Source: Phycisphaeraceae bacterium
GTDB taxonomy: Bacteria; Planctomycetota; Phycisphaerae; Phycisphaerales; Phycisphaeraceae
Direction: 5' to 3'
DNA: 64,000 nt
NCBI GenBank assembly: GCA_963674705.1
Contig: OY771506.1
Coordinates: forward strand, 1,920,001-1,984,000
In this document: in pieces, positions 21,370 through 48,625 of the stretch
Numbering within the stretch: the stretch's first letter is position 1
Layout of the letters: every line of letters starts with the position of its first letter
Notes under the pieces: model-generated
The model's database searches: none
Told to the model about the DNA's origin: nothing
What the model saw: only the letters and a program-made list of their open reading frames with translations
Translations under genes and position numbers: made by a program

Positions 21370-24300
21370 CTACGCTCTCGGCAACACAATCAGTCGCTGC
21401 GTTTCGCCCGATCCTTTTGTATCCGGGTTGTAATACTCATACGCCTTCGGTGCCGGTGTCGTGATCTTCACCGGCATCGTTGCCTGTAATTGGTATTCCA
21501 GTTCCAGTGTCGCGCCCGGCTTCAAACCACGCAGGTAAACGATCGTGCTGCGTGGCGTCACCTGGTACTTCGAGATGATGTTTTGCTTCACCGCCTGGTC
21601 GAACGAATCACGATTCACCGTGAAACCGGCCGGGACGGGCAGGTCCAGGATCACCATCGGCGCCTCAGCGCTCTGGTTGTTCACCACCGTCGCCTTGGCG
21701 GACAGTACATCACCGACCTCCAGATCGCTGTCATCGTATGCAATGTCGATCGACAACGGCTGCTCTTGCTTGGGCTGCGCCGCATCCTGCACGTGATACC
21801 GGAACACCACCTGGTAGCCACATGCCGTGTCAGTCCGTTCACGCAACACGACCTGGTTCTTCCCGGTCTTCAGGTATTGACTCACATTGATCTGCCGGAT
21901 GACGTCTGATTCCTCCGCGGTCAACGCCAGCGTGTCGACCCGCTCCCCGTTCACCTCAACATCAACCATCCTGCTCTTGCCATCACCCAACGGCTTACCC
22001 GTCCCGGCGAGTAGCGCCTTGAGTGATAGCACCGTCGCCTGAGTCGTGTGCCACGTCCCCCGCGCGTCTTTACGGTTCACCAACCACGCCAACCCCCCGC
22101 GTGTCAGGTCCGGCCGTGTGCCGGATTTGATCAGCGCCAACAGCGCCGTTGCCGTAGTCTCGATTTCACCGCTGCGCCCCATCCCGTAGAAAGTGGTTGG
22201 CGTATTGTTATGCCGATTCCAGAACACAAACTTGCCGTTGCTGCTGATCTGTGCTTCCCGCACAAGCCGTTCCAGGTAAGGCCGTGCATCGTTCCCGCCC
22301 GGGTCGATCGCCAGCAGCGCATTAGCAACCAGCGCCAGCGTGTAAGGATCGTTGATGCTGTTCGCCGAGTGTCGCAACAGGTAATCGCGTGTCTGCGCGG
22401 CGTCCGTCCGGTCGTTCTGGAACACCGCCCAGGCAATGTACGCCGTCGTGGATAGTTCAAGATAATTCATACTGGTCGGGTCCTGATGCATTCGATTGCC
22501 AGGATACTTCCAACCGCCATCCCTTCCACGCTGCTGCATCAGCCACCGACGTGTACGTTTGATCAGTTCAGGATCAACATCATGCACGCGCGCCATGTCC
22601 TGGAACTCCATCAGGCCATAAGCTGTGAGTGTGCGGTTGGCAGGCGGACGCCCGAACCAATCGAATCCACCGCCAGCCACCTCAAAACCAAGCAGCCGTT
22701 GATACCCCAGGTGGATGTACTGCTGCGCCTTGGCTTCAACCTCCGGCGCGTTCTTATTCATCTTGCGCAGGTAATCCAGCGCCAGCACGTTCGGATACGT
22801 CGTCGATGAAGTCTGCTCGAAGCAGCCGTAAGGCCGTTGGAAGATCGCATCCAAACCCTCCACGACCTGGCTGAAACTCGACGGGTACAGTTTAACAACT
22901 GCAACCACGCTGCCATCGATCGCATCGCTCGGCACATCCAGTTCGATCTGTCCCGGCTCTTCCAGCGAGCCGTTCACTACCTGCTCGATCTTCCGCCCGT
23001 CAGGACGAACCTCGATCTCGCGACGGATCGCATCCGACAGATCGCTGCCATCAGCACGGACCTTGACTTCATGATCGCCCACGCGCATCACCCGGATCGG
23101 GCAATGAATCGAACGCACCTCGCCCGGCTCAAGCGATAATTCAAAACGCGCATCTCCCAGGAACTCAAACCAGTCCCCGCCGCTTACCATGATAGACACG
23201 TCCTGTTGTTTATCCAGATAGTTGTAGACCACGATAGGCAGGCCCACCTCGTCCCCGCGCGTCATCGATACCGGCAAATCCAGGTCGACAAAGAACGGCT
23301 GGAACACGCGCAGCGCCGACGTTTCACCGCCAAGCCGGCCATCCGCGGTCACGGCGCTGGCGCTCAGACGCCAGCTCGTGATCGAATCCGCCAACGGCAC
23401 ATCCAGTTGCACGATTCCCCGATCATCCGTGATCAACTCCGGCCGCCAAAGCAACGTCTCGGGGAACCACTGCCGCACACGCACGGGTTGCTGACCGGTG
23501 GATGTCTTCTGATTGACGGCGCCGCGATCTTCCAACGATTCCAGGCCGATGGCCATTTGACGCAGTTCAGACATAGCCACTAAGGAACGTGCCGAATGCC
23601 GCGCCGCGCCGAGCGCCGGTAGCAGGATCCCCACCAGCAGCGCGATGATGGACACGACAAACAGGTATTCAATAATCGTCGGTCGCCTGCCCGAGCCCGG
23701 CAGCATAACAATTAGCAGGTAGATCAACACGATGAATAGCAACACCCCGATGATGCTCCATAGGGTATTGATCGTGTTTAAACCTCTGCGCCGCTCTGCA
23801 GCGATCCGTTGCTCCTTGGAAGGATACGTGCGCGTCTGGAGCGAATACAGGCCGTCCGATTCCCCGCGAAGTATCGCGATGACATCTTCCGAAACCATGC
23901 CATCCAGGCTCTCAAGTGCCTGCTCAAAATAAGGCGAATCGATCGCGTCCAGCATATCGGGCGAGATCATCCCCTCATCCACCAACTGCTGAAGCAAAGC
24001 GTCTCGGCTGCTGCCGACCTGTTGCACCGTCGAGGCGAACAGCGCCAGCTCCAGCATCCTGCGGTCGGATTCTTTCGCTGTGAGAAAAACGCTCGGCGAC
24101 CAGTGGTAGATCGCGTACACCGGCTGCAGCAGTTCCTGCTCCAGGCTGAAGAATGTCTTTTCTGATCCCGGTGATTGCGTCAACACGCTGAAAACAGACT
24201 CATCCACAGCAGCGAGACTGATGGCCCCCCGGATGGGGCTGCCATCAGTCCCGGTTAGTTTGAGCCGCAGGCTCGCCGTCTCACCCGGGCGATACACCTG

Positions 24301-26169
24301 CTTGTCCGTTTCCGCGCTGATCCGCACTTCGTTCGCCTGATCGACATAGATTGTCCGCGACTTTTGCACGGGCAAGCCCGCCGAACCGAAGCGGTATGTC
24401 ACCACCCGGATCGTCCCGGACATCTCGGCCGGCAGATCGAATGCGTACTTGCCTTGCCCGTTCTCGATCGCGATCGATTCGGTCAACAGCGTCTGATCGT
24501 CTTTGATCAGGTCCAGGAAGATCGGCGCGTTACCGCTGCCGACCGCTTCGATCGAAACCGTTTCACCCCCTCGATACACCGCTTTATCCGTCCGCACGAT
24601 GTAGTCATCGTTGGCCTTGCCCAATTCGAGTTGTTTCGTCTCCTGTACGCTCAAACCCGCTTCGTCTGTTGCGCGGACCGTCAGGTGCAACTGTCGTGAC
24701 ATCGGCGTCAGCCGGATTGTCGCGACACCCAGCGAATTGGTCTGGACCTCGTAAGGCACACCCGTGACCGCGAGCCGCGTCTGCGCGGGTTGGCCGTCCG
24801 CATACGTCGTGATGACATACACGCGGTTCTCAACATTACGTACCAGGCTCCCGCTTTCCGGGATCACCTGCACGCGCAGCGGTCGATTCGTCACCAGCCT
24901 GCGGATCTCGCGCGTCTGCACCTGTTCGGCAGAATCCGTCACCTTCAGCCAAACCGTCATCCGCGCGTCGCCGCCGTCCTGCTCCCTGCCGAAGAGCTTG
25001 TCAGGCAGACGCACCTCGAACACCGCCGTCCCGTCCGCATCCGTCTTCAAACTCGGCACCTGAATGATCTGTTTATATGCCCCAGCAAAGCCAACCTCCA
25101 CCTCAACACGTGCGCCGGCAACGGGCTTGCCGAAGAAGTAATCCACATCCACCTTGCCGTACACCACGTCCCCGGGTAAGTAGTAGCTGCGATCAAGCTC
25201 CATCTCCACGCGAAACTTCGGCAGCACGTATTCACGCACCTCGACCGTGTTCGCCGACTCCGTGTCGCCGACTTTGCACCGGACCGTGTACGCACCGTGC
25301 AGGATCTCATCGGCCAACGCACAATCGATCGACGCGATGCCGAATTCGCTGGTCACCCCGGTCTTGCGCAGGATGACGTTGCCCTTCGGATCACTCACCG
25401 AAAACTCAACCGATTCACCCGCGACCGGCTTAAGGTCCGGCTTACGCAACGCAAGCGATCGGCAGTGGATCGTCTGGCCCGGCTGATACACGGGCTTATC
25501 CGTACTCACCATCAACTTCCAACTGCGCGTCAGCTTGATGGTGCGCGTCAGTTCTTCTTTTCCCTCACGGCCGCGCGCAACGACTTTCAGTTCATAATCG
25601 CCGGAGGCCCAATCGGGTAGATCAAAACGCGGATTCCCGCTGCCGGTCGCATCGGTTTTAAAGCTTACAAGCTCGACCGATTCGCCCGTCCTCGGGTTAC
25701 TCAAAACGACATCAACCGATGCGTCGGGCACGACCGCGCCCGATTCATAATTAGTCAGCACGATCCGGATCGACCCGCTCGTTCCGCCCTGCAGCGTGCT
25801 TTGTCCCATGACACGCAGGTCGTACGGATTCGGCGCAAGGTTCAGGTAATACACGTTAAGCGTGAACAGGATCAATATTGAAGCCGCGACAGCCGCCGCC
25901 GCCGTCCACCTGACACCCCGACGCCAATGCATCTGTGCCTGTGCTTTGTTATTCACCTGGGTGATCGTCCGCTCAATCAGTCCGCTGGGCGCTTCAACCA
26001 CGGGCACCTGCTGCATCGCTTCAAACCGCTGAACCGCGTTTTGGTAGGCCAGCTTCCAGACCTCATCCTCGTCGATCATCCGCTCGACGTAAGCGATATC
26101 CTTCGCCGACAGCAGCCCGTGCAGGTACGCATCGGTCATGTAAACCGGGTTGTCTCTTTGGTCAGTCAT
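21370..26169 (-). CDS. Alpha-2-macroglobulin family thioester protein with an anti-sigma-like N-terminus and internal TM/pilin-like segment
   Basis: TDKPVYQPG, EYVLPKF, FPETLLW, DSITSW and thioester PYGCFEQT. Start placed at 26169 because it overlaps the sigma stop (ATGACTGA). Confidence 0.9.
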   Translation of the reverse strand: MTDQRDNPVYMTDAYLHGLLSAKDIAYVERMIDEDEVWKLAYQNAVQRFEAMQQVPVVEAPSGLIERTITQVNNKAQAQMHWRRGVRWTAAAAVAASILILFTLNVYYLNLAPNPYDLRVMGQSTLQGGTSGSIRIVLTNYESGAVVPDASVDVVLSNPRTGESVELVSFKTDATGSGNPRFDLPDWASGDYELKVVARGREGKEELTRTIKLTRSWKLMVSTDKPVYQPGQTIHCRSLALRKPDLKPVAGESVEFSVSDPKGNVILRKTGVTSEFGIASIDCALADEILHGAYTVRCKVGDTESANTVEVREYVLPKFRVEMELDRSYYLPGDVVYGKVDVDYFFGKPVAGARVEVEVGFAGAYKQIIQVPSLKTDADGTAVFEVRLPDKLFGREQDGGDARMTVWLKVTDSAEQVQTREIRRLVTNRPLRVQVIPESGSLVRNVENRVYVITTYADGQPAQTRLAVTGVPYEVQTNSLGVATIRLTPMSRQLHLTVRATDEAGLSVQETKQLELGKANDDYIVRTDKAVYRGGETVSIEAVGSGNAPIFLDLIKDDQTLLTESIAIENGQGKYAFDLPAEMSGTIRVVTYRFGSAGLPVQKSRTIYVDQANEVRISAETDKQVYRPGETASLRLKLTGTDGSPIRGAISLAAVDESVFSVLTQSPGSEKTFFSLEQELLQPVYAIYHWSPSVFLTAKESDRRMLELALFASTVQQVGSSRDALLQQLVDEGMISPDMLDAIDSPYFEQALESLDGMVSEDVIAILRGESDGLYSLQTRTYPSKEQRIAAERRRGLNTINTLWSIIGVLLFIVLIYLLIVMLPGSGRRPTIIEYLFVVSIIALLVGILLPALGAARHSARSLVAMSELRQMAIGLESLEDRGAVNQKTSTGQQPVRVRQWFPETLLWRPELITDDRGIVQLDVPLADSITSWRLSASAVTADGRLGGETSALRVFQPFFVDLDLPVSMTRGDEVGLPIVVYNYLDKQQDVSIMVSGGDWFEFLGDARFELSLEPGEVRSIHCPIRVMRVGDHEVKVRADGSDLSDAIRREIEVRPDGRKIEQVVNGSLEEPGQIELDVPSDAIDGSVVAVVKLYPSSFSQVVEGLDAIFQRPYGCFEQTSSTTYPNVLALDYLRKMNKNAPEVEAKAQQYIHLGYQRLLGFEVAGGGFDWFGRPPANRTLTAYGLMEFQDMARVHDVDPELIKRTRRWLMQQRGRDGGWKYPGNRMHQDPTSMNYLELSTTAYIAWAVFQNDRTDAAQTRDYLLRHSANSINDPYTLALVANALLAIDPGGNDARPYLERLVREAQISSNGKFVFWNRHNNTPTTFYGMGRSGEIETTATALLALIKSGTRPDLTRGGLAWLVNRKDARGTWHTTQATVLSLKALLAGTGKPLGDGKSRMVDVEVNGERVDTLALTAEESDVIRQINVSQYLKTGKNQVVLRERTDTACGYQVVFRYHVQDAAQPKQEQPLSIDIAYDDSDLEVGDVLSAKATVVNNQSAEAPMVILDLPVPAGFTVNRDSFDQAVKQNIISKYQVTPRSTIVYLRGLKPGATLELEYQLQATMPVKITTPAPKAYEYYNPDTKGSGETQRLIVLPRA

Positions 26170-26854
26170 TGCTTGGCTCCGTGCTTGCCGACCACTGGCT
26201 CGATACATACGAGGACAGGGGGCGGCGAAGAGCCTTCAAGGCTTGGTGCATGTGAGCACGAATAGTCGATTCCCGCAGGCCGTAACACTCGGCGATCTCC
26301 GCGTAAGGCATGCAACACCAGATACGCATCACCACCACCGCCCGTTGTTTCTCCGGCAGCTTCAGCACAGCCTGCTCCACGATCTCGGTCGATTCATCTC
26401 GGATCAGCGCGTCAACCGGATCGTTGTCTGCCGTGTTGTCGGCCGGTTCATCCAGCTCGAACGTCGTCGTGATGAACCGCCGCGTTATCTTCCGCCGCAG
26501 CCGCGACCTGCAGGCATTGCGCGCGATCTGGAAGACCCATGGCCTGAACTTGCTGCCCCGCTTGTAGGTCTTGCGTTTCGTCCAGACGGCCATGAAGACT
26601 TCCTGGAATATTTCTTCGCTCTCCGCGTAGTTGCCCATCATCCGACAGATAAATGTCAGCAACGGATTGGCGTACCGACGAACCAGCGGATCGAGTTTCT
26701 CGGATTGCCCACTGGCGACCCGGCCCATCAGCGATTCGTCGGATTCGTGTGCGTGTGTCAGTTGCATATGACGCGGTGGTCCTTCACTCATGGATATGCG
26801 CATGGACCGCAAAGCGCGTAGCCAAACCCCGTGTTTGACCCGGTAAATAGCCAT
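26162..26854 (-). CDS. ECF-type sigma-70 factor
   Basis: Region 2 (EEIFQEVF...FRPWVFQIARN) and region 4 (LPEKQRAV...YAEIAE...STIRAHMHQA); true start may be ~26791 or 26767. Confidence 0.92.
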   Translation of the reverse strand: MAIYRVKHGVWLRALRSMRISMSEGPPRHMQLTHAHESDESLMGRVASGQSEKLDPLVRRYANPLLTFICRMMGNYAESEEIFQEVFMAVWTKRKTYKRGSKFRPWVFQIARNACRSRLRRKITRRFITTTFELDEPADNTADNDPVDALIRDESTEIVEQAVLKLPEKQRAVVVMRIWCCMPYAEIAECYGLRESTIRAHMHQALKALRRPLSSYVSSQWSASTEPSND

Positions 26855-32707: not shown

Positions 32708-33988
32708 CTATTCACCCTTAAACCGCGCAATCAGTGGCGCTGCCTGGTCCGCGTTAAGCATCTTCAGGTATGCCAGCTTGCCTGCAAGGCGCTGCCGTTC
32801 TTTCGGATCAACGTTGTCACCTTGTTGCTTTTGACGATGGATCGCCGCCCGCAGCAATCGGCGGTCTTTGCGCGATAAGCCCATCTGCTCGTTCACCACG
32901 ACGCCCGTCACGCGCTGCCTTCGGCCGCGCCGTTGCACCTGCGTCTTGTCGCGGTTTACCGTGAAGCCTTCTTCCTTGACGATGTCGCCGACCACGCTCA
33001 GAAGCGCGCCGACGTCGGCCGAATTACAGGAAAATGTCAGGTCGTCCGCGTAGCGCGTGTAGGTGTAACCCATCTTGCGAGCAAGCCCCGCCAGCCGACG
33101 GTCAAGCCGAAGCAGGATCGCGTTGCACAAGCCCGGGCTCGTCGGCGCACCCTGAACGCAGACGCGCGGCCCGACCGGCACGTGATACACCTTGCCCTCC
33201 GCTTCAACGGGCTGACGCTCAGATTCGGTCATCAACACCGCGAGCGTCGTCGCGACCGGGTAGCTGTACCCATAGGCGATCAACAACCCGCGCACCCGCC
33301 CGAAGTGTATCGACGGGAAACAATCTTTCAGGTCGATCCGCACCACGACTTCTTTGCCTACGTGCGCCGCTGCATTGCTTGCGACACTACGCGAGGTGAT
33401 GAAGCCGTGTGCGTGTTCGCTGATCGGCAGCTTGCTGACGAGCAGTACGTTTAGCTTGCGCTGGATCGCTTTGAGCTTTTGCTTGGGCGCGTGGATGATG
33501 CGCGTGCCGCCGCTGTGTTTTCGTATCGCAAAGCAGATGTAGTGCGGCGAGGTCTCTCGCTCGCGGTGGATGCTGTAGTGTCTGAGTTGCCCGACCGTCA
33601 GTCCGAGCGCTTGGGCGACATCCTGCTCGCTTTGCCAGACGGGCAGGTTGTAGCGGTTGAGCTGTTCTTTGTCTGTTGCCAGGTCGCGGATGTTGCGGTT
33701 GTTCGTCCGCATCGTCGAACTGAACAGCCGGTCCGCCTCTTCGCGCTGCATCAGTTTCTTTTTCTTCGACGTGGACCAGATGTTGCCGGTGCGCTTCGGC
33801 TCTTTTTTCGGAAGCAGGCGAGGGTCGCGCACGGTCAAGCGGCGATGGTTCGGCTTGATCGGTTCGCGTTTGGTGCTGACCGTTTCGGCCGTCGCAGACG
33901 CATCGGTATGGTCCGTCGACCGGGAGACATCGCGTGTCACCCGGCGCGGTTGGCCGAACAATCCTCGGAGCCAATCGATTAATCCCAT
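32708..33988 (-). CDS. Retron-type reverse transcriptase (Mx162-like)
   Basis: Region X NAAAH, DLKDCFPSI, QGAPTSP, YTRYADDLTFS and region Y RQRVTG; ~110-aa N-terminal extension; no endonuclease or Cas1 domain. Confidence 0.93.
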   Translation of the reverse strand: MGLIDWLRGLFGQPRRVTRDVSRSTDHTDASATAETVSTKREPIKPNHRRLTVRDPRLLPKKEPKRTGNIWSTSKKKKLMQREEADRLFSSTMRTNNRNIRDLATDKEQLNRYNLPVWQSEQDVAQALGLTVGQLRHYSIHRERETSPHYICFAIRKHSGGTRIIHAPKQKLKAIQRKLNVLLVSKLPISEHAHGFITSRSVASNAAAHVGKEVVVRIDLKDCFPSIHFGRVRGLLIAYGYSYPVATTLAVLMTESERQPVEAEGKVYHVPVGPRVCVQGAPTSPGLCNAILLRLDRRLAGLARKMGYTYTRYADDLTFSCNSADVGALLSVVGDIVKEEGFTVNRDKTQVQRRGRRQRVTGVVVNEQMGLSRKDRRLLRAAIHRQKQQGDNVDPKERQRLAGKLAYLKMLNADQAAPLIARFKGE

Positions 33989-34007
33989 GACCGGCTCCGA
34001 TCAAAAC

Positions 34008-34193
34008 GAGGAAGACGCGAATGCCCGGGTTCTCTGGTGGACCACTCGCAAGGCTCTGGACTCGTGGCCTCCCGGCGTTGCGTACGCTGGGAACCGTGGC
34101 GGTGTGAAGCATACAAATCACCACCGCGGCGAAACACCGCGGCATCGTTGGCTGGTCGCAAGCCACCGAACCCGGGCATCACGCGTCCTCCTC
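34008..34193 (-). ncRNA. Putative retron msr-msd ncRNA
   Basis: Perfect 12-bp inverted repeat (34021-34032 with 34168-34179), extended by a further 12 bp (34008-34019 with 34182-34193). It encloses several hairpins and lies directly upstream of the RT start. Confidence 0.8.
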
Positions 34194-35783
34194 TTCGTTG
34201 GAAGTCTCATTATATTCGTCGCCGCTGTCAACCTCCCAGCGCGACGGCTGTTTACGCACCTGTTGTGTATCACTCTCCATCGCCGAGGTGCTGCTTGGCT
34301 GATCCTTACGCTGCGGCTCGCTTGCCTTGAAAAGCGCAAGCATGTGCTCGCAAGGTCCCTGGTTCATCAGGTTCTCATCGAAGAACGGGCAGCCGCATCG
34401 GCCGAAGATGATCCGACCCGAATCGTTGACCACCACCTCGACCGGTTTCACGCCGTCCACCTCGCCAAGCACGCGCCAATCACGATACACCACCTCGCGC
34501 GTGATCTTTCCCTCGGGCGTCTTCAGCTTACGCACCTTCTTCGTCTCTTCGACGTTGCACGAATCGATCTGCACGCGCTGTTCGTTCAGGAACTTCTCTG
34601 CTAACTCACGCCGACGGTCGGGCGGGAAGTACGTCGCTTCATCGGCAGGCTCTTCGAATAACTCACGATGCCGGTAACGCCGGTTCTCGACATCAAACAT
34701 GCACTGCCCACGCCGACACAGCCGCACCAACGTGCGCGACGCCGTCGGGTGATCGACGCCAAGCGATTCAGCCACCTCGCCGATCGATGCGTGATACTTT
34801 TCTCGCAATAAGCCAAGCACCGGCTCAAGTAGTCCATCATCCGCCTGCGCCGCTTCGGCCAGCGCATCGAACCCACCAGTTCCCGTAAACGCAGAGCCCG
34901 ACCAGCCCGTCATCCCCAGCAGGAACGTCATGCCCGGCAGCTTCACCGCGTAAAAACTCGGTAGCGCCCGGCCCTTCAGATAAATATCCACGCTCTCAGC
35001 AAACGGCAGCAAACCCTCGATCAGCTTCAGCCGCTGCCTGCCCCACACGCGCGTCGACTTCTGCTCCGTGTAGTTGTGTTCCGCGCCGATCAACGGCACG
35101 ACATGCTCCCAAGGCTCAAGCACCAGCCGCGCATCCTCGCCCGGCGGGAACTCATACCGCAGCGCACGCGGCGAAACCTTCGCCTTCGTGTATCGCATGA
35201 ATCGGATCGCAGATAACAAATCGATAGGCTTCACCGTCAGCCGTGTGCCCGGCATGCCCATCGCCGCCTGCACCTGCAAAAACCCGCGCACCCACGTCTC
35301 GGGCAGCTTCACCTTCTTCTCAAACCGCCCGCCCGCGCTCTGCGTCTCCACCGTTACACCCTCCGCGCCGATGCGGAACGTCGTCTCCCGGCTGCTTCGC
35401 ATCTCACCCAACGCGCCCCACAACCACGCGGTGAAGTCGATGTTCGTCGTCCCCGTCTGCACCTCGCCGACCGGCTCGAACACATCAGGGTCAACGATCA
35501 ACGCCGCATACGTCGATTGATCCTGGCTGAACGCTTCAAAGAAAATCCGATCCGGGTGCACCGTGATCACCGGGTCCAGCAAGTCGCTCTGCGCGATCCA
35601 CGTATCATCCGACCAGATCGCTTCGCCCAGCGCCCGCATCGCGACGCGGAAGATAAACCCGTGCTGCTTGATCTTGCCGTGGAAACGCACGGGCCGACGC
35701 GCGTTAGCCGCGATCCCAAGGTTCGCGCTGCTGCGGTCCGCTTCAAACACCGAAGGCGATGCGTAGTCGATCAGCACGATCAT
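34179..35783 (-). CDS. SWIM zinc-finger protein with an internal winged-HTH-like segment
   Basis: C-terminal CGC-x12-CEH (SWIM CxCxnCxH); IGEVAESLGVDHPTASRTLVRL HTH-like stretch. Confidence 0.8.
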   Translation of the reverse strand: MIVLIDYASPSVFEADRSSANLGIAANARRPVRFHGKIKQHGFIFRVAMRALGEAIWSDDTWIAQSDLLDPVITVHPDRIFFEAFSQDQSTYAALIVDPDVFEPVGEVQTGTTNIDFTAWLWGALGEMRSSRETTFRIGAEGVTVETQSAGGRFEKKVKLPETWVRGFLQVQAAMGMPGTRLTVKPIDLLSAIRFMRYTKAKVSPRALRYEFPPGEDARLVLEPWEHVVPLIGAEHNYTEQKSTRVWGRQRLKLIEGLLPFAESVDIYLKGRALPSFYAVKLPGMTFLLGMTGWSGSAFTGTGGFDALAEAAQADDGLLEPVLGLLREKYHASIGEVAESLGVDHPTASRTLVRLCRRGQCMFDVENRRYRHRELFEEPADEATYFPPDRRRELAEKFLNEQRVQIDSCNVEETKKVRKLKTPEGKITREVVYRDWRVLGEVDGVKPVEVVVNDSGRIIFGRCGCPFFDENLMNQGPCEHMLALFKASEPQRKDQPSSTSAMESDTQQVRKQPSRWEVDSGDEYNETSNEEEDA

Positions 35784-37690
35784 GCGACCACCTCCGCCGC
35801 TTCTTCAAGCCCGTACACGACAGGCCGCTCCGCCGCTAAGCGCAATCCCGGATATGCATGCAATACCCGACCGATCAGGCCGATCAATTGCTCCTTCGGA
35901 TACTTCTGGTCCGGCAAGCGCAACGCAAGCCGCGCCCGCTCCAGCACACGCTTCGCCGACGCCGCATCGTGCCTCGCCGCATTCGCCAGCGCATCGAACG
36001 CCGGCAGCCTCGTCTTACGATGGATCGGCCGGAGCAGCGTGCCCAGCAATATGTCCAACTGCTCCGCCGCCAGCGCACGCGCCTTTTCGTTATCCTGCTC
36101 CAGCACGCGATACGCCAGCATCTGCACGTGGATGTCCGACCCTTCGATCAGGTCACACACCGCGCCGGGCACTTCCAAGTAACTCTCAAACGACCGCACA
36201 AACATCAACCGCGCCAGCTTGTTCGTCTTCAACAACCGGTGATAGTCGTAAATCGAAAACGCCGGCACGCGCGTCAATACCTCCGATGCACGCTGCGCAA
36301 ACGCCGCCGGATCGCGATCGCGAATCGCCTGGTAATAATCGCCGAGCTTGTCCGCGGTCTCCATGAGTTTGTCTTGCTGCTTGTGCCCATAGATGTAGCT
36401 ATACGACGCCCGCGTCACATACCGGCTCGCCATCAGGTCGATCAGTTCTTCATCGTTTGCCTGCTGTGCCGCTTCAAGTAAAAGCGGATACCCACCCCAC
36501 CAGCTCGGCGTCACATGCGCTTTGTAAGGCCCGTGAATCAATCCGGGATACCGCTCATACATTTGGGCCGCGAGTTTGTCCTCCAGCCCGTGCACCCTCA
36601 CCATCCCGAACCCCGCCCAGTTCCACTCGCGCGACGCGCCCGCCAGCGCCCGCAACCGATCCAGCCGCTGTTCTTCTGCTAACCCATTATCAGCAAGCAG
36701 GTCCGACACCGCTTTGTTGAACGTGCTCGGATTACGATCCAACCGGATCGCCGTCGCCCACAGGTCCCACCACCCACGCTGCGCCGCCAGCTTGATCAAA
36801 GGCGTACCCCGGCTGCCGAACCACCCGCCGATCGCGCTGTTCAGGTTCGCTCGAACGTAAGGCATCACATCGCGCCCGCGCGCCTCAAGCAACTGCACCA
36901 TCCCCGATACCAGGTCCAGCCCGTAACCCGTCGGGTGAATCTGCTCAAGCGCTTCGTTCAGTTCTTCCGCATCACGCACCGACCCCGTCAGCCGCAGTGC
37001 ATCCTGCTGCCATTCCTTGACCGGCACCATCTTGCGGTAAAGCTCGTTCGCAAAATCCTTGTCCTGCGCATCACGCGCCGCCTGCTCCAGCTTCAGCCAG
37101 CGTTTGCGTTTTTCGCTACCCCAGAAACTCACCGGCAGATGCTTCAATATCATCGCGCTTGATGCGTGATCGATCCCGTACAGCTCTATCGCCGAATCTT
37201 CATCGAATTGAAACCACAGATCATTCTCATCCAGCACGATCGCCCGCGCCGCTGCCGTCGGCGCTTCGCGATACGCCTGGATCATGTCACGCTTCAGCAA
37301 CACGGTATTGATACGCCAGCCCGATGCCGGCGCATACCGCCACTGCATCAGCTTGCGGACCATCGTCGTGTCGCGGTGCTTTCGAGCGCTGGCAAGCCAC
37401 GCTTCCAACTCATCCGCGTAATCCGTCCAACGCACGCGCGCCCAGCGGAAGTTCGGCTCGATCATCCAGTCCGAAAAATGATTCAGAATCAAAGGCCGAA
37501 ACAACACACGGTTCCGCTCGTACAACATCGGCCCCCAGAACCACGTCAGCCCCGGGAACACATCCGATCGCGTCAGCCCCTCAATATGATCGCGCAGCCG
37601 CTGATCGTTCGGCTGCTGCTCGATCAATTCCTGCAGCGTCTTCTGTAACTGTTTGGCTTCCTGGCGTAACTTCGACACGTGATCCCCCAT
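35780..37690 (-). CDS. Uncharacterised helical (ARM/HEAT-like) protein, first gene of the RT operon
   Basis: 636-aa ORF rich in Ala/Leu/Trp/Arg; 4-bp overlap with the SWIM gene; GGAG upstream of the start; fold is inferred only. Confidence 0.6.
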   Translation of the reverse strand: MGDHVSKLRQEAKQLQKTLQELIEQQPNDQRLRDHIEGLTRSDVFPGLTWFWGPMLYERNRVLFRPLILNHFSDWMIEPNFRWARVRWTDYADELEAWLASARKHRDTTMVRKLMQWRYAPASGWRINTVLLKRDMIQAYREAPTAAARAIVLDENDLWFQFDEDSAIELYGIDHASSAMILKHLPVSFWGSEKRKRWLKLEQAARDAQDKDFANELYRKMVPVKEWQQDALRLTGSVRDAEELNEALEQIHPTGYGLDLVSGMVQLLEARGRDVMPYVRANLNSAIGGWFGSRGTPLIKLAAQRGWWDLWATAIRLDRNPSTFNKAVSDLLADNGLAEEQRLDRLRALAGASREWNWAGFGMVRVHGLEDKLAAQMYERYPGLIHGPYKAHVTPSWWGGYPLLLEAAQQANDEELIDLMASRYVTRASYSYIYGHKQQDKLMETADKLGDYYQAIRDRDPAAFAQRASEVLTRVPAFSIYDYHRLLKTNKLARLMFVRSFESYLEVPGAVCDLIEGSDIHVQMLAYRVLEQDNEKARALAAEQLDILLGTLLRPIHRKTRLPAFDALANAARHDAASAKRVLERARLALRLPDQKYPKEQLIGLIGRVLHAYPGLRLAAERPVVYGLEEAAEVVA

Positions 37691-47055: not shown

Positions 47056-47700
47056 ATGATTCGTAAGACTTTTGCCATGTTAGCCATATTGGCGTTGCCC
47101 GCAGCGGCGTCCGCCGGCGTGCTCGACGCCTCGTTCGAGTCGGCGCCCGCTGACTTTGACGGCTGGGAAATGTCAGGCGCCCGTGTTGCGGGCGATGCCG
47201 GCACGATCGGTGTCACTGACGGCGTGCAAAGCCTCGCGCTGACACTCAGCGGTGACGGGTTTGCCTGGGATATCAGGTCGTTCTACGACGCCGCCGCGAT
47301 GAGTGCCGCGGTTGCAGGCGGCGGCACGTTCGAATTCGACGTGACCTACGACACATCGAGCATCCCGCAGAGCGCCGTTTCCTTCCTGAATCTGTCCATC
47401 TACGCCGATGGTGGCTTGTCGCCGTGGGCGCAGAAAAACAGCCTGGCGACGACCAACGGCACGACGAACGAAACGATCCACATTGCGCTGTCGCTTGTCG
47501 ATGACCTTAAATTCGTGACCGGCGATAGCTGGTACAAGATTGGGATCGGGTTCAACGGCGACTGGGTCGACGACCTCGATCCGCGCAACACCACTGACGC
47601 AACCGTTTATATAGACAACGTTGTTATCACCCCTGAGCCCGCTTCGCTAGCGCTGCTCGGCCTGGGGGGGTTGGCGATCGCCAGCCGACGTCGCGCCTGA
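47056..47700 (+). CDS. PEP-CTERM surface protein with a beta-sandwich (CBM-like) domain
   Basis: AGGAGG RBS; signal peptide; [23 protein letters not shown] tail. Confidence 0.88.
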
Positions 47701-47716
47701 ACGATTAGACACCACG

Positions 47717-47751
47717 CTCCCGGCTGGTGAAAGCCGACCGGGAGTTTTGTT
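47717..47751 (+). terminator. Intrinsic terminator or stabilising hairpin
   Basis: CTCCCGG...GAAA...CCGGGAG followed by TTTTGTT. Confidence 0.6.
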
Positions 47752-47824
47752 GAAAAAACACGCACACGTATACCCGGCTATGCGGCCTGACAGCTCGCAT
47801 GTGTCCGGTGCTTGGAGGCACAAC

Positions 47825-48625
47825 ATGACCCGTCGAAGTGGTTTTACACTTATCGAATTACTCGTCGTCATTTCCATCATCGCGCTGCTGGTGGGTATTT
47901 TGCTGCCGGCGCTCGGCGCTGCGCGCAGGTCGGCACAAAGACTTCATGATCTGAGCAACCTCCGACAGTTCAACGTCGCGCACACGACCTGGGCCGTCGA
48001 CCACAAAGGCAAGCTGCCACAGGCGTCCACTTACAGCAACGCCGCGAATGCCTCGCTTAACGGCTGGTACCGTTTCGATCTGTTCAAGGAAATGACTGAC
48101 GGCTACGGACTGCCGCTGCAGGCTTTCGGCTGTATCAGTTACGACGAGTTAACCAATGAGTACGTCGAAGGGCTTAGGGAAGACAACACCACAGAACGAA
48201 TCTGGATCCACTGGATGTATTACGGCGGATTGAACGTCACCGCCGGGCCTAAAACACCCAACCCCGGCGGGATACAGATCGACATCGAGACCAAGGAAGA
48301 GTTTAACTTCCCCGCCACGATGGATGATGTCTGTGACAGTGAGATGCTGGCGGTTTGTTCTCACGGCATGACCAACCAGTCATGGGGCAGTTGGCTGCCG
48401 CACCTGAACGGGACCAATGAACGACTGGAGAAAGACAGCGGCAAGCTGTTTATCACACCCAGCCGCGTTCCGGTCTGGGACCGTTACCCGAAACAGTACA
48501 AGCCGGACGGTGTGAACGCTTCGTATCGCGACGGTTCGGCACATTGGATCGAAACCGACGATCTGGCGGTCTTCAGCCCGAAGAACTCCGGCATCACCAT
48601 GTACTTCTATGACAAACAGAAATAA
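47825..48625 (+). CDS. Prepilin-type N-methylation domain protein (DUF1559/H-X9-DG-like)
   Basis: [35 protein letters not shown]-terminal [11 protein letters not shown]. Confidence 0.88.

Follow-up and report, generated by a model that had tools for sequence, protein, structure and literature searches.

A membrane hairpin with a pilin-like helix ahead of the bait of a thioester α2-macroglobulin with a predicted anti-sigma domain

Bacterial α2-macroglobulins (A2Ms) are known as passive periplasmic traps. The types that occur in bacteria have been described (PMC5764988), as have those of archaea (PMC8416519). The window analyzed here, a 64,000-nucleotide stretch of genomic DNA, encodes an A2M with a membrane hairpin close to its bait, and the second helix of that hairpin resembles the stalk of a pilin. 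The locus thus raises the question of what a piece of pilin is doing inside a protease trap. An earlier note, made from the letters alone, had proposed that the bait is membrane-tethered and could be activated by an intramembrane or prepilin-type peptidase or by docking on a type II secretion (T2SS) or pilus platform. We examined the gene, its relatives, and its genomic surroundings, and we describe here the reading that best accounts for them together with its rivals.

Results

The window gene encodes a thioester A2M

The gene occupies positions 21370 to 26208 of the minus strand and encodes 1612 residues from the first ATG, with Met14 (at 26169) as the likely start. Its product matches the Pfam families MG2, MG3, A2M_BRD, A2M, TED, and A2M_recep, and the TED match is the only one in the genome. 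Pfam, PDB sequence and fold searches, and a structural model agree on the order MG ring, MG6b, TED, and C-terminal MG8. The best sequence relatives in the PDB were CD109, A2M, A2ML1, and TEP1, with E values of about 1e-62 to 1e-52 (best, 2e-62), whereas the match to Escherichia coli YfhM was far weaker (1e-18). An AlphaFold2 model of residues 14 to 1110, built from an alignment of 46 sequences and having a mean pLDDT of 80, retrieved CD109, C3, and C4 as its top matches in a fold search. It begins with four N-terminal helices, the last of which continues into a first transmembrane helix (TM1), and the MG ring follows.

Relatives were collected with residues 620 to 1110 as the query. The best 120 of the 2102 matches, together with the query, make up the set of 121 proteins studied here, which is biased toward the insert since it was chosen by similarity to an insert-containing query. 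The thioester motif GCFEQ (residues 1128 to 1132, including Cys1129; 22813 to 22827, minus strand) has a GCxEQ counterpart in 120 of the 121. His1241 (22486 to 22488, minus strand) lies 112 residues past the thioester cysteine and aligns with the CD109 histidine; a histidine was found at this site in 69 of the 74 homologs in which the DPT anchor could be located, and we presume its catalytic role from what is known of C3 and CD109. By sequence, the product of this ORF is a thioester A2M closer to CD109 and A2M than to YfhM. It is not a YfhM-type protein: the lipoprotein anchor and PBP1c operon of that type are absent, the N terminus consists of an anti-sigma-like domain and a transmembrane helix, and the sole conserved neighbor is a sigma factor gene.

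An ECF sigma factor gene precedes the A2M gene

The neighboring gene (26162 to 26767, minus strand) encodes an ECF sigma factor that matches Sigma70_r2, r4_2, and TIGR02937, runs 8 bases into the likely A2M start, and shares 39 to 47% identity with the sigma factors encoded ahead of homologs. The A2M protein itself starts with a predicted cytoplasmic anti-sigma-like domain of the zf-HC2 type (25924 to 26169, minus strand), which comprises the four helices of the model and matches the anti-sigma family NF052375 with an E value of 9e-5, below the cut-off of that profile. In homologs zf-HC2 itself was matched. The HxxxCxxC motif occurs in 88 of 105 full-length proteins; it is missing from the window copy, which has lost its zinc ligands. 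TM1 (25843 to 25911, minus strand), recognized by hydropathy in homologs and as a continuous helix in the model, joins this domain to MG1. A helical N-terminal domain and a transmembrane segment encoded directly after an ECF gene recall the Class I (ZAS-type) anti-sigma factors, a likeness to be read with the profile match below cut-off in mind.

The sigma gene was adjacent in all 18 loci having a full N terminus and upstream DNA and in none of the 8 loci of a clade with short N termini, a count that omits 8 truncated or partial loci. Five of the 8 sigma-less loci are without an anti-sigma domain, and the other three have a short CxxC form. This clade, which includes Isosphaeraceae (L007, L009, L017, L019, L026, L029, L035, and L039), has thus lost or shortened the domain, and the pilin-like helix is present in all 7 of its readable loci. 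Beyond the sigma gene no conserved neighbor was found over loci L001 to L036, and a conserved linkage to pilus or T2SS genes was likewise absent from these loci. The genome does contain two A24 peptidases, 18 T2SSF domain matches (about ten genes), and 90 prepilin-motif matches in 5.5 Mb.

A putative autoregulatory ECF promoter lies at 26795 to 26821 (minus strand); its CGCATA box stands 27 nt ahead of the ATG of the sigma gene, and its −35 part is degenerate in this copy. Of 17 homolog loci, 9 have the motif CAAC-N15-CGCRTA in front of the sigma gene, as compared with one occurrence in 364 kb elsewhere in the same loci; the window copy fits a relaxed form only. Genome-wide counts stayed at control level. 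In five genomes there were 10 matches versus 8 in a reversed control, five of the 10 being the operon's own and three of the five extra sites having no ORF behind them, and in the window's own genome there were 25 matches versus 31 in the control. We therefore rejected a wider regulon, and the presence of the motif at the operon but at control level elsewhere suggests, as far as motif counts can tell, that the regulon is limited to the operon. In the window copy neither the zinc ligands nor the strict promoter motif survives, and the ortholog L001 has lost the strict promoter too; regulation of the window copy may have diverged.

A membrane hairpin with a pilin-like helix precedes the bait

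The insert sits between the end of MG6a (VDES, residue 668) with the linker region LNK and MG6b, which starts at residue 911 with VRQWFPETLLW and aligns there with the post-bait VRKHFPETWIW of CD109. Re-reading the sequence bore out the order that had been described. A hydrophobic helix (LWSIIGVLLFIVLIYLLIVML, residues 816 to 836; TM2, 23701 to 23763, minus strand) forms the end of a 41-residue helix (residues 795 to 835) that leaves the LNK region, as judged by the model and hydropathy. It is followed by PGSGRRP (residues 837 to 843), of which the short basic PGSGRR (23683 to 23700, minus strand; low pLDDT) is a predicted cytoplasmic loop in place of a prepilin leader and G|F site, and then by TIIEYL...GAARHSA. 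This last part (residues 843 to 893; 23530 to 23682, minus strand) is a copy of the pilin α1 helix, comprising TM3 and an amphipathic periplasmic half, that matches the consensus of the host's DUF1559 pilins, with the cysteine of position 36 replaced. It stands in gap-free register with prepilins (R−1, P1, E5, and P22), Glu5 being kept and R|P occupying the cleavage site. In the AlphaFold2 model the 41-residue helix closing with TM2 leads through a low-confidence loop to one continuous helix of 49 residues (845 to 893) that contains Glu5 and Pro22, and thence through disorder to MG6b.

Profile searches gave a divided answer. The N_methyl profile did not match the window segment, and the pilin assignment that had been proposed for it found its profile support in homologs, where the helix segment was matched by N_methyl or DUF1559. 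Those DUF1559 matches span only profile positions 1 to 35 or 1 to 49 of 268, and there is no globular pilin or DUF1559 head. A class III signal with G|F at the N terminus is also absent, the helix being internal and reading R|P in the window. From these comparisons, derivation of the second helix from pilins is supported; it acts as a pilin stalk does, yet it is not a prepilin.

The hairpin had been placed where the flexible bait normally lies. This general position holds, because the insert does lie between MG6a/LNK and MG6b, but the hairpin precedes the flexible bait and does not replace it: in the model a disordered stretch (residues ∼893 to 914) directly follows the pilin helix, immediately before MG6b. 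The flexible bait therefore survives after the helix, to judge from the model and from its rate of change. The hypervariable segment (residues 893 to 910; 23479 to 23532, minus strand; pLDDT below 50) differs from that of a 96%-identical ortholog at 6 of 18 residues with no synonymous change, versus 4% overall (p = 6e-5). Taken together, this anatomy supports, from sequence and model, a predicted protein that crosses the inner membrane three times, its anti-sigma domain lying in the cytoplasm and its thioester trap in the periplasm.

The hairpin is conserved and the prepilin cleavage site is not

At least two hydrophobic or transmembrane helices precede MG6b in 117 of the 121 proteins, and a pilin-like helix scored above the shuffle maximum in 117 of 121. 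The basic residues of a loop on the cytoplasmic side fit the positive-inside rule, and K/R exceed D/E in the loop of 92 of the 121, in keeping with the proposal that the bait region is tethered to the membrane by a hairpin with a cytoplasmic loop. The loop is the least conserved part. Pro22 is present in 97% of the family helices, and Cys36 is kept in 2 of 117 as opposed to 92% of 60 pilins; a few copies hold an intact FTLIELLV or Cys36.

The idea that a prepilin-type peptidase activates the protein found no support in this comparison. A G/A|F site was found in none of 117 homologs, so that retention of G|FTLIE, which the earlier note had suggested looking for, was not observed; Gly occupies −1 in 19 of 117, Arg is the commonest residue at both −1 and +1, Glu5 is present in 51 of 117, and a permissive prepilin site in 7 of 117. 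We rejected a prepilin-peptidase site as a family trait.

Among 41 genome loci, 31 have a readable hairpin, in which the pilin helix is present in 22 and absent in 9; three genomes with a helix-less hairpin still contain 17 to 49 pilin motifs. Distribution in the phylum is patchy, with 16 of 121 phylum genomes matching the A2M at 1e-30. No pilin helix was found in the readable loci of these genomes, the window's excepted, their inserts being GspG-head-like, multi-TM, or plain. Non-pilin inserts with five to six or two transmembrane helices are common at the same slot. Several A2Ms (L031:3890-8323, L104, L108, L109, L111, L112, L118, and L119) carry there a module resembling the GspG pseudopilin head (DPWG...GPDG), which reached the Pfam cut-off in L031; these relatives share the LNK sequence. 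Homology of the helical subdomain at residues 720 to 800 to the GspG-head insert was considered and rejected, as hhalign aligned the shared LNK only. Other A2Ms (L037, L103, L105, L106, L034, and P0212) have four to six transmembrane helices before the bait, and in L037 and P0212 the bundle closes with a pilin-like helix, that of P0212 retaining the pilin cysteine. In L036:9998-14145 the A2M frame shifts inside the pilin-like helix, and the gene is split into two ORFs.

The insert is authentic and has no specific pilin donor

A run of 18 residues in the helix (nt 23599 to 23652) is identical to a segment of the protein of a prepilin-type gene at 47825 to 48625 (plus strand; N_methyl and TIGR02532), which lies outside the system and serves as a comparison only. 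The identity that had been reported is exact, and the special link that it seemed to imply fails: the same 18-mer is found in 50 of the 90 prepilin-motif matches of the 5.54-Mb genome, so the likeness is to the family consensus and not to gene 47825. That gene did give the best DNA match (48 of 54 nt, with 12 of 18 codons identical), at a level within codon-usage chance (P = 0.15) and similar to the best matches between pilins. Recent copying from gene 47825 is thereby ruled out. The codons of the window 18-mer are slightly more pilin-like than the usage of its own gene predicts (p = 0.049). In the window (47056 to 48625) a PEP-CTERM gene comes before the prepilin gene, and genes for glycoside hydrolases come after it.

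The insert could have been an artifact unique to this assembly. An independent assembly (L001) with 96% amino acid identity carries the same insert. Region 23000 to 24400 is bridged by a single contig in two of four runs, namely X1, which may be the source, and X3, which belongs to a different study and shows 72 differences; no spanning contig was found in X5 and X8. The L001 insert and the single spanning contigs rule out an assembly chimera.

The helix resembles the pilins of its own host

The A2M helix bears the signature of its host's own pilins: LGAARR in the window and SLSRARE, LNAxKERANRVK, VQKVREA, and VQQAREAARRTQ in other genomes. When pilins were ranked over positions 19 to 47 in 12 genomes (G001 having been removed as a near-duplicate), the own pilins came first in 7, second in 2, third in 2, and fourth in 1, a ranking based on 3 to 8 pilins for most genomes and on pilins filtered for a cysteine near position 36. 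The diagonal of seven lineages was the best of 5040 permutations, a value that overstates the effect because the genomes are related, the pilins few, and the groups partly named from motifs. The TM half is between 19 and 79% identical to the own pilins. Where it has decayed, the periplasmic half is still conserved, and lineage-specific residues at positions 22 to 47 persist where the TM half is at 19 to 30% identity.

As an outside test, metagenomes were searched with a pattern fixed beforehand, namely what we took to be an Armatimonadota-type pilin motif ahead of FPETLxW. It returned one match, a sigma gene with a CxxC-bearing A2M containing ILFPVFAKAREKARQSSA. A helix of this FPVF type occurs in 13 of the 120 relatives listed, two of them labeled Armatimonadota. 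The best 120 short matches to it were N_methyl/DUF1559 proteins; organism labels for 19 of those 120 comprised 13 Armatimonadota, 5 Bacteroidota, 1 Gammaproteobacteria, and no Planctomycetota.

In a tree of 45 proteins based on the C-terminal domains, helix carriers fell into five separate groups. A single helix clade was rejected when P0212 was included (p-AU 0.014) and not rejected without it (p-AU 0.25), and the helices of P0006, P0047, and P0212 look recently captured. Within Planctomycetota the A2M tree did not distinguish co-evolution from repeated capture, its backbone being unresolved.

Discussion

How might such a protein work? Release of a sigma factor by regulated proteolysis is a familiar pathway. 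Sequence and model together make it probable that the fusion protein is a trap-sensor in which bait cleavage springs the thioester and the ensuing collapse sets the sigma factor free, whereupon the operon is expressed anew. The fuller reading that we favor, tentatively and at a little less than an even chance, adds that this single-use periplasmic sensor poses as a pilin and, once cut, would free its sigma factor to re-express the operon. The chain would run from a cytoplasmic N terminus through TM1 to the periplasmic MG ring, back in through TM2 to the basic loop, and out again as the pilin helix, followed by the bait and MG6b-TED-MG8. An uncleavable helix could not enter a filament, but in the membrane and the periplasm it would expose the surface that the dozens of DUF1559 pilins of the cell expose there. 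The trap would then have pilins, or the platform that assembles them, as its neighbors and would encounter any agent that binds or attacks these. Cleavage of the bait, or of the outer half of the helix, would spring the thioester onto the attacker, the collapse would be felt through the three membrane helices and expose the anti-sigma domain to intramembrane proteolysis, and the freed sigma factor would transcribe its own promoter, such that the spent trap is replaced.

Mimicry is favored by three observations: the periplasmic half remains host-like despite decay of the TM half to 19 to 30% identity, the helix has lost exactly the features required for processing or disulfide linking (the G|F site and Cys36), and relatives carry a second pilin module, the GspG head, in the same slot. 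Host matching, the outcome of the Armatimonadota-type search, and the occurrence of hairpin and pilin helix across the family also speak for this reading, as do the adjacent sigma gene and the promoter motif at the operon. There is precedent for pilin helices as intramembrane signals, as presented in PMC7196804, and for a transmembrane zinc anti-sigma factor with a protease-like periplasmic domain, as presented in PMC11506125. Other results weigh against the pose as a pilin. The helix is dispensable, being absent from 9 of the 31 readable hairpins, including three in genomes that keep 17 to 49 pilin motifs; no pilus or T2SS gene is among the conserved neighbors; and repeated recombination from the 30 to 140 pilin genes of each genome would also yield host matching, a view that fits the variable identity of the TM half and the few copies with FTLIELLV or Cys36 still intact. 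The trap-sensor itself has to accommodate a window copy without zinc ligands or strict promoter, and eight loci that keep the helix or the start of the hairpin without an adjacent sigma gene, three of which keep the short CxxC domain.

A strong rival, though in our view somewhat less likely, is a simpler account in which the same trap-sensor uses the helix as a mere anchor and rigid strut for its bait, overwritten repeatedly by recombination from many pilin genes, with selection then removing the cleavage site and the unpaired cysteine. Most of the data can be accounted for in this way too. The nine non-pilin second helices are as expected for a strut, as are the common inserts of five to six or two non-pilin TM helices, the broad range of identities between TM halves and own pilins, the three apparently recent captures (P0006, P0047, and P0212), the rejection of a single origin with P0212, and the slight excess of pilin-like codons in the window 18-mer. 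Against a mere strut stand the persistence of lineage-specific residues 22 to 47 over decayed TM halves, the second pilin-derived module at the same site, the want of a specific recent DNA donor (P = 0.15), and the failure to reject a single origin once P0212 is left out.

We consider it unlikely that the helix senses the pilin pool, forming intramembrane pairs with free DUF1559 pilins or with assembly proteins whose level, and not an outside protease, would control sigma release, as pilins do with PilS or PleC. Host matching of the helix, the precedent in PMC7196804, and the many pilins and platforms of the genome agree with such a sensor; retention of the thioester (120 of 121) and of a fast-changing flexible bait, persistence of the helix in 7 readable loci without an adjacent sigma gene, and a promoter motif not enriched beyond the operon do not. 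Least probable is a cut in the loop by prepilin peptidase or another intramembrane protease that switches on the thioester or sets the C-terminal half free as a very large protein with a pilin anchor, for which the predicted cytoplasmic loop, the two A24 peptidases, Glu5 in 51 of 117, and the 7 permissive sites speak, and against which stand the complete lack of G/A|F in the 117, R|P in the window, Gly −1 in 19 of 117 with Arg commonest on both sides of the site, and the poor conservation of the loop.

Returning to the pilin-mimicking trap-sensor, we regard a further extension of it as conceivable but more readily doubted than believed. The protein may be an integrated-decoy receptor, a complement-like thioester trap with an anti-sigma domain whose trigger carries an uncleavable copy, constantly kept up to date, of the pilin stalk that is most abundant in the cell itself. 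Any protease, enzyme of a predator, or phage protein directed against pilins or the machinery that assembles them would be trapped by a covalent bond, and a dedicated sigma factor would receive the signal; the arrangement would have arisen at least twice and been host-tuned in at least two phyla.

The family is best compared with four known systems. The metazoan thioester proteins (human CD109, A2M, and A2ML1, insect TEP1, and complement C3) share the order MG-LNK-bait-MG6b-TED-MG8, the GCxEQ motif, and the histidine at +112, and provide the best sequence and fold matches; the window protein differs from them by adding the N-terminal anti-sigma domain and TM1, the hairpin with its pilin helix before the bait, and a co-encoded sigma factor. 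The bacterial type I A2Ms (E. coli YfhM/ECAM and Salmonella SaA2M) and type II MagD are likewise periplasmic, inner membrane-associated traps with a bait, those of type I having CXEQ, according to PMC5764988, but they are lipoproteins or complex-anchored and are encoded with PBP1c or in the mag operon, whereas the window protein has an ECF sigma partner and three predicted membrane crossings. The N_methyl and DUF1559 (SBP_bac_10) prepilin-like proteins of Planctomycetota, which PMC8567305 describes as an expanded family detected in membrane fractions, share the α1 helix in register over positions 5 to 47; in the window family, by contrast, the helix is internal and lacks the leader, G|F, Cys36, and the DUF1559 head. 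Myxococcus DdvA-DdvS, a transmembrane zinc-binding anti-sigma factor with its co-encoded ECF factor, resembles the system, as portrayed in PMC11506125, in its cytoplasmic zinc-type helical domain, its single TM helix, and a large periplasmic domain linked to proteolysis. The window sensor differs in being a protease trap, not a TPR-CHAT domain, in having two additional TM helices, in lacking zinc ligands, and in that its anti-sigma role is predicted.

The design is real and conserved and apparently undescribed. No description of an A2M of this kind was found in the literature searched, and the supplement text of PMC7826278, in the part available, gave no match for macroglobulin, A2M, PF01835, or PF07678; published ECF group tables could still mention a sigma group with an A2M anti-sigma factor. 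The family appears to wire a trap to transcription through an anti-sigma domain, with the bait region threaded through the inner membrane. Its host-matched helix is either self mimicry of the kind seen in integrated-decoy immune receptors or a clear example of a domain captured again and again from a gene family that has expanded. The helix also offers a handle on the DUF1559 pilins, which number from dozens to more than a hundred in a planctomycete genome: whatever binds or cuts the A2M helix probably binds or cuts them. The predicted promoter makes a reporter assay straightforward.

Elsewhere in the window, a 636-residue ORF with no Pfam or PADLOC match precedes a retron type XIII-like locus (32708 to 37690, minus strand) that encodes an RT_XIII reverse transcriptase (E value, 1.6e-133) and a SWIM_XIII SWIM protein (E value, 2e-145).
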